Assembly (NCBI GenBank): GCA_964605945.1
Contig: CAZSEK010000001.1
Span: 1-54,211 of the forward strand
Reading direction: 5' to 3'
DNA from: an uncultured Methanosarcinales archaeon
Lineage (GTDB): Archaea > Nanobdellota > Nanobdellia > Woesearchaeales > UBA9642
DNA length: 54,211 bases
Positions 20,005-50,814 of this stretch are shown here, one piece after another (within the stretch, counting starts at the first letter, position 1; each line of letters begins with the position of its first letter). Made by a program: the position numbers and the translations under genes. The notes under the pieces are model-generated. The model was not told the DNA's origin. It saw only the letters and a list, made by a program, of their open reading frames with translations, and made no database searches.

Positions 20005-20454
20005 TTAGTTCTGATTTATTTTTTCTTTTAATTTGAGATACATTTTTTTTGTAAATTCTATGATTTTTTCTGCATATTCTTTATCAAGAATGGTTCCGTA
20101 ATATAACATTCCATTTCTAAAAAATCTCAGCTGGTCTGCAAATTGCACATCTTTCTCATCAAATCCAATTATTCGCATATATGATACTTCAGCTTCATGC
20201 GCTCCCTGCCCAGAAGCATTATATCCTTCCAGAAGCATTTTTGCCCTTATTAATTCAAGCAATATATCGTAACATGATTTTATAAAATCATTAGCATTAT
20301 CGTTATTTAATTTTATTTTCTGTATTTTTTCCAATAAATTCTTATGGCTATTTTCCGCTTCTTTAATCAAAAATTCTGCTCTTGATTTATCTATGCTTTG
20401 CTTCTTAACAATTCTTTCATTAACAAATTCTCCAAATTGTTTTATTGGTCTCAT
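20005..20454 (-). CDS. HEPN-domain protein (toxin partner of the MNT)
   Basis: 149 aa, helical. LRFFRNGMLYYG resembles the HEPN (PF05168-type) R-N...Y motif. ATGA overlap with the upstream NTase gene. Confidence 0.6.
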   Translation of the reverse strand: MRPIKQFGEFVNERIVKKQSIDKSRAEFLIKEAENSHKNLLEKIQKIKLNNDNANDFIKSCYDILLELIRAKMLLEGYNASGQGAHEAEVSYMRIIGFDEKDVQFADQLRFFRNGMLYYGTILDKEYAEKIIEFTKKMYLKLKEKINQN

Positions 20455-20999
20455 AATTCAATACTCCCAGTAAGTATGATTCCATTGCATAAATTTTCTT
20501 TCAGATTTTTATGTATGCTTTTGAAATCATTATAAAAGTTAAGGTTAATTTTTCTTTCTAAATATGTTTCATAAGTTGCTAAATCAAATAATTTATCCTT
20601 TCTGCCTATCACTGCAATATCTATGTCTGAATTCATTATATCTTCGCCTCGCGAATAACTTCCGAATAAAATTATAGTTGCTCCGGCAAACTCTTTTTCT
20701 AAAAAATCCGCTAATCCTGACTCATAAAGCTGCTTTAAATTATCAATATACTTTAATTGCATTATCTTGTGATTTTCTCTGTTTAATTCAATCGCCCATC
20801 TTCTTGACTCTTTATCCTGTTGAATATTTATTATGTTTTCCTTTTCTAAATAAGGTAATGCTTTCATTACTGCTGGCTGTGTGACTTCTAAAAAATTTGC
20901 AATCTGTCTTTGATTTAATGATGAACCTGCCTTTACAAATAGCAGTCTTAAAATTTCCTGCTGAAGATTTGTTAACTTAAGTTTATATATATTTACCAT
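20451..20999 (-). CDS. wHTH-fused minimal nucleotidyltransferase (MNT)
   Basis: ILFGSYSRGEDIMNSDIDIAV is the GS-x(n)-D-x-D NTase signature. N-terminal MarR-like wHTH. Own BRE/TATA ~25 nt upstream. Confidence 0.8.
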   Translation of the reverse strand: MVNIYKLKLTNLQQEILRLLFVKAGSSLNQRQIANFLEVTQPAVMKALPYLEKENIINIQQDKESRRWAIELNRENHKIMQLKYIDNLKQLYESGLADFLEKEFAGATIILFGSYSRGEDIMNSDIDIAVIGRKDKLFDLATYETYLERKINLNFYNDFKSIHKNLKENLCNGIILTGSIEL

Positions 21000-45590: not shown

Positions 45591-45677
45591 AAAAGATTCT
45601 TGAACAGCATAGACGCAAATTCTGTAACATCACAACCTTTAAATATATCCATATCAGAAACTAATTTGGTGGGTGAA

Positions 45678-48329
45678 ATGGAACATAACGAAGAGCACAT
45701 AAAATCTGAAATTAAGAAGGTTATTGATGATTTCAGGGAAAATTATAAATTTCATAAAGAACATTCTGAAGCCAATACTGAAACAAGATTGGTTGAACCT
45801 TTATTTAAAGCTCTTGGATGGAATGAAAAAGACTGGACAAAACAAGAGCAAATTCATAGAGGACAAAAACAGGGCAGAGCAGATTATATTTTTAAAATAA
45901 ATGAGAGAATTGTTTTTGTTTTAGAAGTTAAAAAAGTCGGCATACCTTTAGAGAAAGAAGCCAATATACAGGTTATTTCTTATGCTTTATCAAAAAGAAT
46001 TCCTTTTGCAATTTCAACGAATTTTGAAAGATTGAATATATTTTGTGTAGAGCAGGAAGATGCGTTAAATAATAAATTTAGAGTTTTTACAGAGCCAGAA
46101 AATTATTTGACTAATTTAAACGATTTATTGTTTTTATCAAAACAAAGTTTTGAAGAGAATTTAATTTTGAAAAAAGCAGAATCTGAAGGCAGATTAAAGA
46201 GGAGAGTTTCTATTGATAAAACATTGCTTGATGACTTAATGAATGTTAGAAAATTGATTGCTAACGACATAGAAAAAAATTATTCTGAAAAATACGCTTC
46301 CAATGAAAAAGATGAAATTGTACAAAGAATTATTGATAGATTAATTTTTATAAGAAGATGCGAAGATACAGGAATCAATCCTGATAATATTATGTTAGAA
46401 GAATTAAACAGACTGCCTGATAATAGAGTTTATGGACGATTAAAAGATATATTCCAAAAATACGACGATGTTTATAACAGTGGATTGTTTGCAATTGCAA
46501 AAGATAATGACTGCGATATAATAAAAATTGATGGCACAATAATAAAAAAATTATTGTCGCATCTTTATCAATCAAAAGACGGCACATATATTTATGATTT
46601 TGATTGGATTGACGCAGATGTTTTAGGTCAAGTCTATGAGCAATATTTAGGAATAATTTTAGCACAGACAAAATCTGGAAAATCAAAATTAAAAGAAGGG
46701 CAGGCGCACAGAAAAGAGCAGGGAATTTACTATACTCCAACATATATTGTTGATTATATTGTAAAAAATACTGTTGGAGAGCTTATTAAAGAAAGAAAAG
46801 ATATGAAGAATATAAAGATATTAGATCCTGCTTGTGGTTCTGGCTCATTTTTGATTAAAGCATTTGATTATATGAATGATGCGTTAACTAATACTGATTC
46901 TGTGAAACAGCACAGACTAGATTCTCAAGGAGCTTATTCTATAAAAACAGAAATATTAAAGAATAATATTTATGGCGTTGATTTGGATAATAAAGCAGTT
47001 GAAATAACTAAATTGAATTTATTGTTAAAAGCTGCTGAAAAAAATAGAAAATTACCTGATGAATTAGATAAACACGTAAGACACGGAAACTCTTTAATTG
47101 ATGATTCTTCTATTGCTGGTCTAGATGCGTTCAAATGGACTGATGAATTTGAAGAAGGAAGCTTTGATGTTGTTATTGGGAATCCACCTTACATTAGAAA
47201 TACGGAGTTGTCGAAAACCGATAAGTCTTTTTTTAATCAAAATTATGTCGGAGCACATAAACAATATGATATTTTAGTTTTGTTTTTTGAGAGAGGCATA
47301 AAATTATTAAAAAATGAAGGATATCTCGGTTTTATCACATCTAATAAATTTATGGCTAGTGATTATGGTGAAAAATTAAGAGAGCTCATTCTTAAAAATT
47401 GTAAAATTATTTCTTTGATTGATGTTTCTAATTTAAAAATATTCAAAGACGCTTCTACTTATCCAGTTATTGCTATTTTTCAAAAAATCAATAATAAAAC
47501 ACAAAGAGATAATAATATCATCTCCTTTCACAAAATAGAAGACTTAAACAAATTATCCTCTAATAAGCAAATAATTAAAATAAAACAATCTAAGTTTAGC
47601 GAAGAAAAAGACAATAAACTTATAGAAAATAAAGGCGGCACGAGAAACGAGATAACTAAAAATATCGAACAAGGAAGCAAAAAATTAAAAGAGTTGTTTC
47701 TTTGTCAAAGAGGTTCGCCAAAAAATAAAATAAAAATTATTGAAAAAAGAACAGAAAATTCCGTGCCTTGCATAATGTCAAGAGATGTAGGCAGATACTC
47801 TATAAAAATATCTAAAAATAATTTTATCACATCTAATCTTCAAAAAAAGATTTTCAATTCAGAGAAGATATTGATGCCACGTACTGTTTTGAGTCTAAAA
47901 GCATCATTAGATGAGGGCTGTAATTTTATAATGGATAGAATATATTTTCTTATCCCCAAAGAAAATGTAAAGGTTAATCTTAAATTAGTAACAGGAATTT
48001 TGAATTCCAAACTGATTGATTTTTATTATAAGTTAAATTTCGGAAGTACACATGTTGGAGGAGGATATCTGGATTTAAGAGGTACGCAAATAGTCGAAAT
48101 TCCTATAAAAATAACTACAGAATTACAGCAAAAACCTCTTATAAAATTAGTCGATAAAATGCTTTCTTTAAACAAACAATTAAATTCTTTCAATGGTAAA
48201 AAAACAGCAGAAACTGCGAAATTAGAGGAAGAAATAAAGGCAACAGATTACGAGATAGACCAACTCGTCTATGAATTATACTCAATAACTAAAGAAGAAC
48301 AGAAGATTATTGAAGAGAGTTTGAAATGA
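45678..48329 (+). CDS. Type IIG restriction-modification enzyme (PD-(D/E)xK nuclease + gamma-class N6-adenine MTase + TRD)
   Basis: HsdR_N-like nuclease core LGW...GRADYIF...VFVLEVKK. MTase motifs GIYYTPTYIV, ILDPACGSGSFLI (I) and VIGNPPYI (IV). TaqI-like TRD GILNSKLIDFYY. GGTGA SD and TATA favour the ATG at 45678 over the TTG at 45600. Confidence 0.8.
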   Translation: MEHNEEHIKSEIKKVIDDFRENYKFHKEHSEANTETRLVEPLFKALGWNEKDWTKQEQIHRGQKQGRADYIFKINERIVFVLEVKKVGIPLEKEANIQVISYALSKRIPFAISTNFERLNIFCVEQEDALNNKFRVFTEPENYLTNLNDLLFLSKQSFEENLILKKAESEGRLKRRVSIDKTLLDDLMNVRKLIANDIEKNYSEKYASNEKDEIVQRIIDRLIFIRRCEDTGINPDNIMLEELNRLPDNRVYGRLKDIFQKYDDVYNSGLFAIAKDNDCDIIKIDGTIIKKLLSHLYQSKDGTYIYDFDWIDADVLGQVYEQYLGIILAQTKSGKSKLKEGQAHRKEQGIYYTPTYIVDYIVKNTVGELIKERKDMKNIKILDPACGSGSFLIKAFDYMNDALTNTDSVKQHRLDSQGAYSIKTEILKNNIYGVDLDNKAVEITKLNLLLKAAEKNRKLPDELDKHVRHGNSLIDDSSIAGLDAFKWTDEFEEGSFDVVIGNPPYIRNTELSKTDKSFFNQNYVGAHKQYDILVLFFERGIKLLKNEGYLGFITSNKFMASDYGEKLRELILKNCKIISLIDVSNLKIFKDASTYPVIAIFQKINNKTQRDNNIISFHKIEDLNKLSSNKQIIKIKQSKFSEEKDNKLIENKGGTRNEITKNIEQGSKKLKELFLCQRGSPKNKIKIIEKRTENSVPCIMSRDVGRYSIKISKNNFITSNLQKKIFNSEKILMPRTVLSLKASLDEGCNFIMDRIYFLIPKENVKVNLKLVTGILNSKLIDFYYKLNFGSTHVGGGYLDLRGTQIVEIPIKITTELQQKPLIKLVDKMLSLNKQLNSFNGKKTAETAKLEEEIKATDYEIDQLVYELYSITKEEQKIIEESLK

Positions 48330-49060
48330 AATCTGAAACATTGATTTATGGTACAGAATTGTTAATTATGTTAGATGAAATTGGAAAAGAGATTTCACTT
48401 CCTGAATTTGAGGAGAAAAGTAAGATAAAAGGAGACGAACTAAAAGAATTATTAAGATATCTTCAAGGAAAGGAGTATCTACGCTATAAATTAGGGTTAT
48501 TTATTAATGATTCAAAAATTTCAGACTCGACTATTGAGTTGTTACCGAAGGGAATGGAAGTAGTTTTAGGAAAAAGAGATTATTTTACTGAAGGAGAAAA
48601 AGTTGTTGAGAAAAAAGATAAAATAAAAGTAATTTTTGACAGCAATATTTATGATTTAATTGCAGATGGGAGCTTAAATATTAATTTGCTTTCTGAAAAA
48701 AAAGAAGATTTTGAATTTTATATAACCCATGTTCAAATAGATGAAATTAATGAATGTCCTAACGAAGATAAAAGAGCAAGATTACTCTTATTCATGACTA
48801 AATTATCCCCGATAGTTATTCCTACCGAATCATATATTTTAGGTAAATCAAGATTGGGTGAAGCTAGATTAGGAGATACAAAAACACTTGAAGAAATAAG
48901 AAAAGAAAATTCGGAACATAACGAAGATGCATTAATTGGAGAAACTGCAATTAAAAATAATCTAATTTTAGTAACAGAAGATAGTCAGTTAAAAAATAAA
49001 GTAAACTCGCTTAAAGGAAAAGCAATAAGTGTAGAAGAGTTTAAGGAGAGTTTAAAATGA
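48326..49060 (+). CDS. wHTH + PIN-like domain protein
   Basis: ATGA overlap with the RM gene. The C-terminal half has acidic PIN-like positions VIFDSNIYD ... VQIDEINE ... DALIGETA ... LVTEDSQL. Confidence 0.5.
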   Translation: MKSETLIYGTELLIMLDEIGKEISLPEFEEKSKIKGDELKELLRYLQGKEYLRYKLGLFINDSKISDSTIELLPKGMEVVLGKRDYFTEGEKVVEKKDKIKVIFDSNIYDLIADGSLNINLLSEKKEDFEFYITHVQIDEINECPNEDKRARLLLFMTKLSPIVIPTESYILGKSRLGEARLGDTKTLEEIRKENSEHNEDALIGETAIKNNLILVTEDSQLKNKVNSLKGKAISVEEFKESLK

Positions 49061-50217
49061 CCAGAACAAAACCAATTGCTGTAAATGTTGAACCATCTGT
49101 CTTGAAATGGCTGATTGAAAGTTCAGGATGGACAGAGGAAGAGATATCGAAGCGTCTAAAAACAAGCACTCAGAATATTAAAAATATGAAATTAGGAGAG
49201 AAGAAGCCATCTTTTAGACAATTGGAAGAATTAGCTATTATATTTAAAAGACCTGTTGCATCATTTCTATTATCAAAACCTTTGGCAGAAAAACCAAAAC
49301 CAAAAGATTACAGGATGCTTCCTGATAAAACAAATAAATTTGACAAAAAAACTATTTTTATAATGAGACATGCAAGAAGATTGCAAGAGTTAAGTAAGGA
49401 ACTATCCAGAAATGTTGATTATGAAACAAAATCGAAAATAGAAAAAATCAAAATTTCAGACAATGCAGAAATAATTGCGTCTAAATTTAGAGAGAAATTC
49501 AATTTAACTGAAGAAAAACAAAGAAAATTCAAAACACCTTATGAGTTATTTAACTATTTAAGAGATATTCTTGAAGATAAGAATATTTATTTATTCCAAT
49601 TTTCAATGCCTGTTGAAGATGCGCGAGGATTTGTCTTTGTAGATGAATCACCAAATATAATTGTAGTAAACACAAAAGACAATATTGAAGCAAGAATATT
49701 CTCATTGATGCATGAATTTGCACACATCCTTCTAGGAGAATCAGTAATTGATTTGCCAGATGCAACTCATACATTTAAAGATGATGTAGAGAAGTGGTGT
49801 AATGAATTTGCATCAGCATTCTTGCTACCTAAAGGCTTAGCAAAATCCGCTTTTGAAATAAATAAATTAAATCTTACACAAAAAGAAACTCTCAGATATT
49901 TATCCAATAGATATAAAGTTAGTAAAGCTATGCTTCTCCTAAATATGCTTAAATTAAAATATATTGAAAGAACAGATTATGAAGCTATATTGGCGAGGTT
50001 CAAAAAAGAAGAAATCAAACCTAAAAAAGAAGTTGAAAAAGGAACTGGTGGAGGAATACCTTCTGAAATAAGATGTCTTTCTGAAGTTGGAAATAAATTT
50101 GTTTCTCTAGTCGCCAATAACTATGATAGAGAGCATATAACATATACAGACGCATTAAATTATCTATCTATAAAATCAAAGAGTTTTGACAAGGTACTTT
50201 CGAAGGCGAAAAAATGA
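49057..50217 (+). CDS. XRE-HTH fused ImmA/IrrE-family zinc metallopeptidase (COG2856)
   Basis: ATGA overlap. N-terminal HTH (EEISKRLKTSTQNIKNMKLGEKKPSFRQLEELA). HEFAHILLGE HExxH motif. Confidence 0.8.
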   Translation: MTRTKPIAVNVEPSVLKWLIESSGWTEEEISKRLKTSTQNIKNMKLGEKKPSFRQLEELAIIFKRPVASFLLSKPLAEKPKPKDYRMLPDKTNKFDKKTIFIMRHARRLQELSKELSRNVDYETKSKIEKIKISDNAEIIASKFREKFNLTEEKQRKFKTPYELFNYLRDILEDKNIYLFQFSMPVEDARGFVFVDESPNIIVVNTKDNIEARIFSLMHEFAHILLGESVIDLPDATHTFKDDVEKWCNEFASAFLLPKGLAKSAFEINKLNLTQKETLRYLSNRYKVSKAMLLLNMLKLKYIERTDYEAILARFKKEEIKPKKEVEKGTGGGIPSEIRCLSEVGNKFVSLVANNYDREHITYTDALNYLSIKSKSFDKVLSKAKK

Positions 50218-50705
50218 CTGATAACGTTTACATCATAGATACTTCTTCTTTAGTGAAGTTAAATAGAAATAACCCAATCGATGTATTTCCAAGTATCTGG
50301 GAGAAACTTAAGTTTTTAGTAGATAATAATCGGCTCATAGCACCAAGAGAAGTTTTAAGTGAAATAAAACAAAATGATGATGTGCTTAGCAAATGGGCAA
50401 AAAATCAAAAGAAGATGTTCAAAGAGCCAACACAAAAGCAAATTGAAATAGTACAAGAAATATTGAAAGATTTTCCTGCATTGATTGATACTGAACGAAA
50501 GTTTGATGCTGATCCTTGGGTTATAGCTCTCGCTATTGAATTATCCTTAAGTTCACAACAAACACTATTTACTATTAAAAGAATTGTTGTAACAGAAGAA
50601 AAACTTAGAGAAAATAGGGTCAGAATACCTTTTGTCTGCAATAAAAAATCAATAGAAGCAATAGATGTGGTTGAATTATTCCGAGCAGAAGGATGGAAAT
50701 TTTAG
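50214..50705 (+). CDS. DUF4411-like PIN-fold nuclease
   Basis: ATGA overlap. YIIDTSSL..., FPSIWEKL, DDVLSKW, DADPWVIALA, IVVTEE and RIPFVC match my recollection of the DUF4411 consensus, the usual partner of COG2856 proteins. Confidence 0.65.
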   Translation: MTDNVYIIDTSSLVKLNRNNPIDVFPSIWEKLKFLVDNNRLIAPREVLSEIKQNDDVLSKWAKNQKKMFKEPTQKQIEIVQEILKDFPALIDTERKFDADPWVIALAIELSLSSQQTLFTIKRIVVTEEKLRENRVRIPFVCNKKSIEAIDVVELFRAEGWKF

Positions 50706-50814
50706 AGTTATAAAGAAAACAGCCAAATTCTTAATAGCTGACACATAATGTCGTAGGTTAAAAAATAATTCTTATTTTCATAAACATTTTAAATACATCA
50801 ATTCTAACTAACTT

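Follow-up and report, generated by a model that had tools for sequence, protein, structure and literature searches.

A modular candidate defense island in a DPANN archaeon combines a Type IIG restriction enzyme, a winged helix-turn-helix-PIN protein and a Rosmer-like cassette

We analyzed a 54,211-nucleotide (nt) stretch of DNA (contig CAZSEK010000001.1, positions 1-54,211; the whole stretch is referred to here as the window) from what appears to be a DPANN, Woese- or Pacearchaeota-like archaeon, and within it a block of four genes at positions 45678-50705. The reading we favor, at a probability of about 0.5, is that this block is a modular, layered defense island made of three separable modules: a Type IIG restriction-modification (RM) enzyme (gene 1), a winged helix-turn-helix (wHTH) protein with a PIN nuclease domain that would serve as an RM-coupled backup effector (gene 2), and a two-gene cassette encoding a helix-turn-helix (HTH)-ImmA/IrrE protein and a DUF4411 protein (genes 3 and 4). 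The modules share one translationally coupled operon in a variable slot between dsbA-like genes and sufS. Judging from gene context, the conserved unit is an RM specificity gene plus a wHTH protein. An earlier reading of this DNA, made without database searches (the sequence-only reading), had proposed a hard-wired four-gene system and had not singled out this pair. The genes are as follows:

45678-48329, + strand: gene 1, 883 amino acids (aa) from an ATG
48326-49060, + strand: gene 2, 244 aa
49057-50217, + strand: gene 3, 386 aa
50214-50705, + strand: gene 4, 163 aa

An open reading frame (ORF) check placed the four co-oriented genes exactly where the sequence-only reading had put them, and all three junctions are indeed ATGA stop/start overlaps (GAGAGTTTGAAATGA at 48326, GAGAGTTTAAAATGA at 49057 and GCGAAAAAATGA at 50214). 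Homologs conserve the N-termini MKSETL, M(T/A)RTKPIAVN and MTDNVYIIDTSS, which shows the starts of genes 2-4 to be genuine. By a crude gene call, only 5 of the 33 co-oriented neighbor pairs window-wide have 4-nt overlaps and this block supplies 3 of those 5, leaving ATGA overlaps scarce outside it (2 of 30 pairs); three in a row are thus unusual, even for a compact genome of ~30% GC.

Gene 2 has no significant family match in Pfam, PADLOC, NCBIfam or PHROG, its Pfam PIN sequence match is marginal (0.02), and a sequence search of the PDB returned no match, so that structure prediction was needed. An AlphaFold2 model built on a 30-sequence alignment resolved two domains with confidence (mean predicted local distance difference test score, pLDDT, 84.5):

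48326-48586, + strand: wHTH (RM-linked N-domain), residues 1-87; its start codon overlaps the gene 1 stop
48620-49060, + strand: VapC-like PIN nuclease domain, residues ~99-244

The first of these has the wHTH topology of three helices and a beta-hairpin (pLDDT 86-92). The second, with pLDDT values mostly of 86-95, was matched by Foldseek to the VapC/PIN structures PAE2754, VapC2 and Shigella VapC in the PDB at a probability of 1.00 and with a TM-score of up to 0.67, which bears out the wHTH-PIN assignment made earlier from motifs. D105, E140, D201 and D219 are invariant across the 30-sequence alignment of the gene 2 family, with a spacing that we take to agree with the D7/E42/D98/E119 pattern of VapC. 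Weak matches to TFE and MarR were found with a profile of the N-domain, and in a 190-aa paralog (the short variant described below) the same domain structurally matches PadR/MarR/ArsR-type wHTH proteins by Foldseek. Cas4 (PREFRAN) was considered as another identity for gene 2 on the strength of a weak match (7.8e-05 in PADLOC, 2.9e-04 in NCBIfam), which lies far under cutoff and covers the inter-domain linker and first part of the PIN domain; the PIN fold rules it out.

Loci for gene 2 and its N-domain came from exact look-up, from scanned GTDB genomes and, with only the N-terminal domain as query, from metagenomes. After annotation by tblastn and de-duplication at 97% nucleotide identity, 26 distinct loci were left, 23 of them evaluable. 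The N-domain adjoins an intact Type IIG gene or hsdS in 15 of the 23, and three more keep a Type IIG remnant. On this evidence the N-domain almost always stands straight after a specificity-bearing RM gene, either a Type IIG gene or a Type I hsdS. The junction itself is conserved: in six distinct loci, the window included, the ATGA at which the wHTH-PIN gene begins is shared with the Type IIG end ...IIE(E/D/R)SL(K/R)-stop. In the five loci outside the window, the PIN gene is 70-86% identical to gene 2 (the range of its close homologs in general), while the Type IIG enzyme matches gene 1 at no more than 39-65% identity. L061 and L075, which encode wHTH-PIN proteins, and L067, which encodes the short variant, keep the decayed C-terminus of a Type IIG enzyme in the overlapping frame. 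Six other distinct loci with a close homolog of gene 2 extend 1.7 kb or more beyond it, and ImmA and DUF4411 genes are missing from all six; AAA ATPase, WYL protein, IS240 transposase or PD-(D/E)XK genes follow instead.

The N-domain family is very small and lineage-restricted, with 14 clusters at 50% identity recovered in a full HMMER pass over 1.84 billion representative proteins. No model in PADLOC, Pfam or NCBIfam matches it, and a scan of viral contigs with the N-domain alignment found nothing.

From these alignments, the C-terminal domain carried on the wHTH scaffold is exchanged between contexts, a PIN domain in gene 2 and its close homologs versus a linker rich in glutamine and asparagine (Q/N-rich) plus a helical domain in the short variant. 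The short variant, of ~190 aa, shares its N-terminal 87 aa with gene 2 at 65-80% identity and then differs, continuing as a long disordered Q/N-rich linker followed by the helical domain with a conserved hydrophobic tail. It starts directly on the end of hsdS in nine distinct loci, eight of them through an overlapping ATGA on ...VLKESFEK-stop and the other (L065) ~1 nt apart. Six of these nine also show hsdR, 3' of the short variant and on the other strand, and the remaining contigs are too short to reach it. Two further short-variant loci have hsdS 0.4-0.6 kb upstream. At L052 (1625-4276), the Type I RM genes and short variant adjoin GmrSD (Type IV restriction) and MazG-like genes in a larger defense island. 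At L077 (3597-5936), genes for a 152-aa membrane protein and for a 289-aa protein whose N-terminus is PIN-like (MLDTNILV...) come before the short variant, and a CDC48-like ATPase gene comes after it. More distant wHTH-PIN relatives, of ~220 aa and with a different N-terminal wHTH, include one inside a Type I RM locus; at L055 (6264-10739), a distant wHTH-PIN gene stands with an MNT (NTP_transf_2)/138-aa pair between the topoisomerase VI B and A genes, an arrangement that recurs on many contigs.

The position behind Type IIG genes is itself variable. Directly after the Type IIG gene, overlapping it or 1 nt away, stands a PIN protein, a SIR2 protein (SIR2_2 match of 32.7 bits, above the gathering cutoff), a protein with two transmembrane segments (2-TM) or a 179-aa protein of no known type, depending on the locus. 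The PIN, SIR2 and small membrane proteins belong to classical types of abortive-infection effector. The 152-aa, 179-aa and 190-aa proteins have no significant Pfam, PADLOC or NCBIfam assignment. The 179-aa protein also has no PDB sequence match, and it contains an RNVFAH (Rx4H, HEPN-like) motif, although a likeness to HEPN proteins is unsupported. An adaptor domain common to all slot proteins was considered and rejected, as BLAST showed no similarity of the N-domain to the 152-aa or 179-aa proteins and the SIR2-carrying loci gave no tblastn match to the N-domain.

Gene 1 itself appears to encode a complete single-chain MmeI/Eco57I-like Type IIG enzyme. It matches Eco57I (9.6e-46), N6_Mtase (5.5e-27), MmeI_Mtase, TaqI_C (8.2e-15) and HSDR_N_2 (2e-07) in Pfam and REase_MTase_IIG (2.4e-105) in PADLOC, and the three elements listed in the sequence-only reading were all located. 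These are an N-terminal PD-(D/E)xK nuclease (D69...E83-V-K85, where the HSDR_N_2 match exceeds its gathering cutoff), a gamma-class N6-adenine methyltransferase (motif I DPACGSG at residues 383-389, motif IV NPPY at 502-505) and the enzyme's own C-terminal TaqI_C-type target-recognition domain (TRD; residues 702-810). The protein ends in ...IIEESLK, and no hsdS-like gene is present in the block. Bacterial plasmid relatives of the enzyme (L104-L108) are ~1000 aa long, annotated as 'N-6 DNA methylase' and 25-30% identical. Next to each of the five lies the gene of another methyltransferase (~540 aa), either convergent or in the same orientation, and none has an overlapping effector or other coupled small gene; this is an Eco57I-like two-gene layout, which the archaeal loci lack. 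At L096 (456-3719), precomputed Pfam matches place an additional N-terminal GDSL-lipase-like domain on a Type IIG enzyme of 1087 aa.

The remaining module is the cassette of genes 3 and 4, whose parts within and beyond gene 3 are the following:

Gene 3 residues 16-67, + strand: XRE-type HTH (Pfam HTH_3, 3.4e-4)
Gene 3 residues 173-294, + strand: ImmA/IrrE (M78) zinc metallopeptidase (Peptidase_M78, 4.2e-16)
50706-50767, + strand: non-coding tail of ~62 nt, conserved in the window, L082, L084, L093 and L095; right end of the cassette

Gene 3 thus has the XRE HTH and HExxH peptidase that had been read from its translation, the latter as HEFAH at residues 219-223 (nt 49711-49725). PADLOC assigned it to RmrA (2e-19, covering 13-308 of 386 residues), PHROG to PHROG 2439 (4e-51) and NCBIfam, under its cutoff, to the spr1629 repressor/antitoxin (9.4e-18); we predict that it is a RosmerTA RmrA-like antitoxin or regulator. 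Gene 4 matches DUF4411 over its full length (2.5e-29), again as expected from the sequence-only reading, and has many homologs at 64-94% identity. D9, E46/E50, D100, E128/E129 and D151 are invariant in 27 homologs, and the protein is predicted to be a PIN-like toxin nuclease of the VapC clade. The view that such a pair forms a toxin-antitoxin (TA) or defense module agrees with the literature, in which DUF4411.1 is the predicted toxin of HTH+DUF955 systems (Matelska 2017, PMC5499597) and PIN-like toxins are a predicted partner class of RosmerTA (PMC10440598). As gene 3 fits RmrA and gene 4 matches none of the RmrT toxin models of PADLOC v2, the pair is Rosmer-like rather than a catalogued subtype. 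In the PADLOC check as a whole, the Type IIG enzyme and RmrA were recognized and the other proteins of the block were not. The gene order of the pair is fixed, with DUF4411 directly 3' of a fused HTH-DUF955 gene in the window and in all 12 other contexts examined. Close copies of the cassette stand in these settings:

L084-86: Type IIG (1027 aa), 152-aa 2-TM protein, ImmA, DUF4411
L087-92: IS240 and Type IIG remnant, 179-aa protein of no known type, ImmA, DUF4411, DUF2779
L096-98: Type IIG (1010-1087 aa), SIR2_2 protein, ImmA, DUF4411, DUF2779
L093-94: hsdM, hsdS, hsdR, ImmA, DUF4411
L082-83: S-layer gene, ImmA, DUF4411; no RM gene

In addition, L095 is a 1.8-kb contig with little beyond the pair, and a diverged pair lies in reversed orientation within the Type I locus L062, beside the short wHTH variant. 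Close copies are co-oriented at the 3' end of an RM operon in four of five independent DPANN contexts (the window, L084, L087/L096 and L093), which is far above chance placement. This position may reflect function, an insertion preference or use of the cassette as an anchor for exchanging RM cargo. L087 and L096 share the DUF2779 flank and carry different Type IIG-X cargo; the copies of the cassette are 83-94% identical to that of the window, and the accompanying Type IIG enzymes only 33-44% identical. In DNA alignments, similarity begins on the left at the ImmA ATG or ~33 nt earlier. This ~33-nt leader is present in three of the five contexts outside the window (L084 5808-5840, L093 4811-4843 and L096 4786-4818), where it begins immediately at the stop codon of the RM or effector gene before it; in this stretch L084 and L093 are nearly identical. 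The window has no leader, and its ImmA start overlaps the gene 2 stop. On the right, copies of the tail (L082 7493-7555, L084 7493-7555 and L093 6493-6555) are followed by different genes where sequence continues. The tail has a weak predicted consensus fold, and an Rfam scan of the block and this tail gave no match; it may be a terminator, a recombination site or simply the cassette end.

Outside DPANN, none of five bacterial plasmid copies of the ImmA-DUF4411 pair caps an RM operon. A scan of viral contigs with the DUF4411 alignment yielded one locus, L109 (4490-6209, from IMG/VR), in which a pair with 52-54% identity lies between tape-measure-like and Dit-like tail genes of a tailed virus, apparently carried as a moron; the same scan with gene 3 found nothing. 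Because the cassette is self-contained outside DPANN, occurs without RM genes and has fixed ends, it is an autonomous mobile two-gene module of the RosmerTA kind.

The whole block is an insertion between housekeeping genes; the sequence-only reading had placed it between genes of this type. Domain matches confirmed the flanks: two DsbA/thioredoxin-like membrane proteins upstream (GILT/Thioredoxin_4, and Thioredoxin_4 plus DSBA) and a class-V aminotransferase of the SufS/IscS type downstream (1.6e-112), followed by KsgA. A relative reached through the DsbA ortholog has the same GILT-DsbA...Aminotran_5-RrnaAD flanks with six unrelated genes in the interval, and the block therefore fills a variable slot. 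The flank genes of the window have no match among the loci gathered for this analysis (L001-L109). The closest sequences found outside the window share 94% identity with gene 4, ~90% with gene 3, 86% with gene 2 and 65% with gene 1, and the figure for the flanking DsbA is 69%. Genes 2-4 are thus closer to copies elsewhere than the housekeeping flank is, which indicates that they were horizontally transferred. A search for direct or inverted repeats or att-like sites flanking the block turned up only AT-rich chance matches, and there are no tRNA genes in the window. Elsewhere, IS240-family transposases adjoin RM-effector islands (L005 8469-9371, L054 15191-15892, L084 1047-1748 and L087 2607-3818), as does a tyrosine integrase at L001 1166-2398. 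The insertion sequence (IS) at L087 appears to have destroyed the Type IIG gene, of which a 170-aa TaqI_C fragment is left.

Upstream of the block, 87 nt separate gene 1 from the preceding gene, and two signals were read from the sequence:

45638-45648, + strand: TATA-box-like TTTAAATATAT, ~30-40 nt 5' of the gene 1 ATG; candidate operon promoter
45668-45676, + strand: Shine-Dalgarno-like GGTGGGTGA, just 5' of the gene 1 start; putative

A sigma-70 promoter scan gave fewer promoter-like sites than shuffled sequence, with a model not applicable to an archaeon, and an intrinsic-terminator scan found terminator-like sites at chance level. Junctions 1 and 2 (48312-48329 and 49043-49060) are almost identical over 15 nt, since ...ESLK is the C-terminus of both the Type IIG enzyme and the wHTH-PIN protein. 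This likeness could be coincidence, a requirement of translational re-initiation or short homology for joining modules. A second ATGA-overlapped pair lies at 20005-20999 on the - strand; the product of 20451-20999 is a MarR-type wHTH fused to an NTP_transf_2 (MNT) nucleotidyltransferase, and its 148-aa partner (20005-20454) has no Pfam match. This is probably an MNT/HEPN-type TA or defense pair.

We propose that the modules would act in layers. The Type IIG enzyme would methylate and cut DNA, and the wHTH part of gene 2 would tether or silence the effector through the RM enzyme or through DNA. If restriction failed or were inhibited, the PIN nuclease would be released, cleave RNA and arrest the cell, a guard-type coupling resembling the backup provided by PrrC. 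Independently, the HTH-ImmA/IrrE protein may repress or neutralize the DUF4411 PIN-like toxin until an infection or stress signal triggers the peptidase, presumably by way of self-cleavage at the HTH, and frees the toxin. Proteolytic gating of a toxin by ImmA has been proposed as a model for HTH-DUF955 systems (PMC5499597) and RosmerTA (PMC10440598).

A bolder version of this proposal, which we put forward tentatively and think rather improbable, gives the N-domain a general role: a DPANN wHTH adaptor, co-translated with the RM specificity module (Type IIG or HsdS), would dock interchangeable suicide effectors, the PIN RNase being one and the helical domain with its hydrophobic tail another. 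As a DNA-binding domain, the wHTH might then lure anti-restriction proteins that mimic DNA, or sense that RM has failed, with SIR2, 2-TM and ImmA-DUF4411 proteins as further plug-in layers at the same operon end. There are precedents for such surveillance, as PARIS senses Ocr and EcoprrI is guarded by PrrC. If the adaptor proposal were true, RM enzymes would be routinely guarded, by a new and much simpler protein family.

Several points count against the layered-island reading. Three of the 23 evaluable N-domain loci have no RM gene, L077 being clearly RM-free. The distant wHTH-PIN proteins, with their different N-terminal wHTH, also occur away from RM genes, between top6B and top6A, and stand-alone PIN homologs of 141-146 aa are solitary genes in Bacteroidota. 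The PIN moiety is therefore independent of an RM partner, and from these distant and stand-alone relatives gene 2 looks like a recent fusion of an RM-linked wHTH with a more widespread PIN domain. The short variant resembles an ordinary PadR-type regulator, which would suit a purely regulatory role. The 179-aa slot protein has no recognizable fold, so that calling it an effector is a guess, and the contexts of the cassette are a small sample, five independent DPANN contexts from related lineages. Finally, the strict adjacency of wHTH and RM genes could, on gene-context evidence, result from co-mobility alone.

This last point leads to the main rival, simple co-mobility, under which three independent selfish or defensive modules gathered in a defense-island hot spot, gene 2 is an autonomous embedded defense gene, and the overlaps reflect compaction and co-transfer with no crosstalk. 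We consider this possible, although not what we expect. As a rule, a gene embedded in an RM, BREX or Hma locus is a system of its own (10.1101/2024.01.29.577857), every module of the block is also found without the others, and both the IS240 transposases and integrase flanking several such islands and the variability of the dsbA-sufS slot would follow naturally; even the ATGA coupling has a counterpart in the TA-like pair elsewhere in the window. Pure juxtaposition sits less well with the N-domain occurring almost only on the stop codon of a specificity-bearing RM gene, in two RM types, at a junction that is kept even when the RM gene has decayed. That junction is tighter than ordinary co-localization within islands and resembles the situation of PrrC, the N-domain carries different C-terminal modules according to RM type, and the ATGA overlaps are, as noted above, rare in the rest of the window. 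The wHTH proteins could also be transcriptional regulators of the RM operon (controller- or BrxR-like), with the PIN domain as an addiction or post-segregational-killing element that stabilizes the RM gene. An N-domain of the PadR/MarR/ArsR DNA-binding type, the PadR-like layout of the short variant (a wHTH and a C-terminal helical domain) and the established DNA-binding autoregulation by many TA antitoxins would all suit such a role. We nevertheless find it unlikely. RM controller (C) proteins are small XRE-type HTH proteins, encoded upstream of the R gene that they regulate through C-boxes. Gene 2 instead comes after the RM gene, with its translation coupled to it, its wHTH is fused to a nuclease, no operator-like repeats were found near the operon start, R and M functions share one chain in a Type IIG enzyme and leave no two genes to be timed against each other, and the short variant's long disordered Q/N-rich linker and conserved hydrophobic tail are atypical of PadR regulators.

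Least likely of all, and largely refuted by the gene-context data, is the obligate system of the sequence-only reading, in which the ImmA protease would license one or both PIN-fold nucleases as a backup to restriction. Three consecutive ATGA overlaps behind one upstream promoter-like element speak for it, as does the recurrence of ImmA-DUF4411 directly behind RM and effector pairs in DPANN, and beside the short wHTH variant in L062. The layering that it envisaged is to this extent supported (RM operon ends in four of five DPANN contexts, plus L062), and both the RM-wHTH-PIN and RM-cassette pairings recur. The complete four-gene order, by contrast, was found in the window only, the six other informative wHTH-PIN loci all lack ImmA-DUF4411, and the sequence identities of the modules are strongly discordant. 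The cassette forms two-gene units elsewhere, as in RosmerTA, and it also occurs where there are no RM genes: beside an S-layer gene, on bacterial plasmids, and in a viral tail module. A single hard-wired system is thus not supported.

DPANN defense is poorly charted; a census found RM and CRISPR under-represented and compact candidate systems enriched (PMC12988326). The locus stacks its layers compactly: an RM enzyme in one chain, an exchangeable effector coupled to it in translation, and a mobile cassette predicted to encode a protease-gated toxin. Should the wHTH family tether effectors to RM enzymes, PrrC-type guarding would have a second and independent example, a very small one, and would extend to Type IIG enzymes; genes 1 and 2 make up a directly testable two-gene system of ~3.4 kb. 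The near-identical cassettes at RM ends may mark landing sites at operon ends or anchors for exchanging RM cargo.

Among known systems, PrrC, the anticodon nuclease of the Type IC RM locus EcoprrI, and RloC are the closest parallel. There, too, a latent RNA nuclease is encoded directly behind the specificity gene, within an RM operon or closing it, and the order is hsdM-hsdS-X-hsdR (PrrC is embedded between hsdS and hsdR; PMC12707154). PrrC is likewise attached almost exclusively to RM loci and is a plausible backup when restriction is inhibited. PrrC, however, combines an ABC-ATPase with an anticodon nuclease, whereas gene 2 combines a wHTH with a VapC-like PIN domain, with no kinship in sequence or domains; Pfam, PADLOC and NCBIfam detected neither PrrC domain in gene 2, and the partner here is a single-chain Type IIG enzyme. 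Gene 2 is thus not a member of the PrrC family, and the analogy is one of function only. VapBC shares the VapC PIN fold and four conserved acidic residues with the C-terminus of gene 2. We do not file gene 2 there because it has no separate VapB: the gene upstream is the Type IIG gene, to which gene 2 is translationally coupled, and the N-terminus is the fused wHTH. PIN genes coupled to Type I RM have been described, explicitly with none seen with type II systems (Matelska 2017, PMC5499597).

Gene 1 has the nuclease-methyltransferase-TRD single-chain architecture of MmeI/Eco57I Type IIG enzymes; the archaeal enzymes differ in their coupled downstream effector gene, the bacterial plasmid relatives having a second methyltransferase. 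Genes 3 and 4 resemble RosmerTA and the three-component HTH-DUF955(COG2856)+DUF4411.1 TA systems of Matelska in having a fused HTH and ImmA/IrrE antitoxin-like protein followed by an overlapping toxin gene, and they differ in being a highly conserved archaeal cassette with a fixed 62-nt tail that recurs at the 3' ends of DPANN RM operons. Genes embedded in RM loci are usually defense genes (Payne et al. 2024, 10.1101/2024.01.29.577857), and those recognized in this way, including the PDC/HEC candidates of PADLOC, are similarly small nuclease, SIR2 and membrane-protein genes nested in or appended to RM, with varying cargo. Type IIG was outside that survey, which dealt with Type I RM, BREX, DISARM and Hma, and neither gene 2 nor the short variant matches any PADLOC v2 model; in the present loci, a common N-terminal domain goes with the RM specificity gene and the effector domain varies. 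The general theme is thus already known from PrrC, from PIN genes with Type I RM, from embedded defense genes and from RosmerTA. What appears to be new is a wHTH family that tracks RM genes with exchangeable C-termini, the coupling of this family and of other effectors to Type IIG enzymes, and the habit of the cassette of capping RM operons in DPANN.

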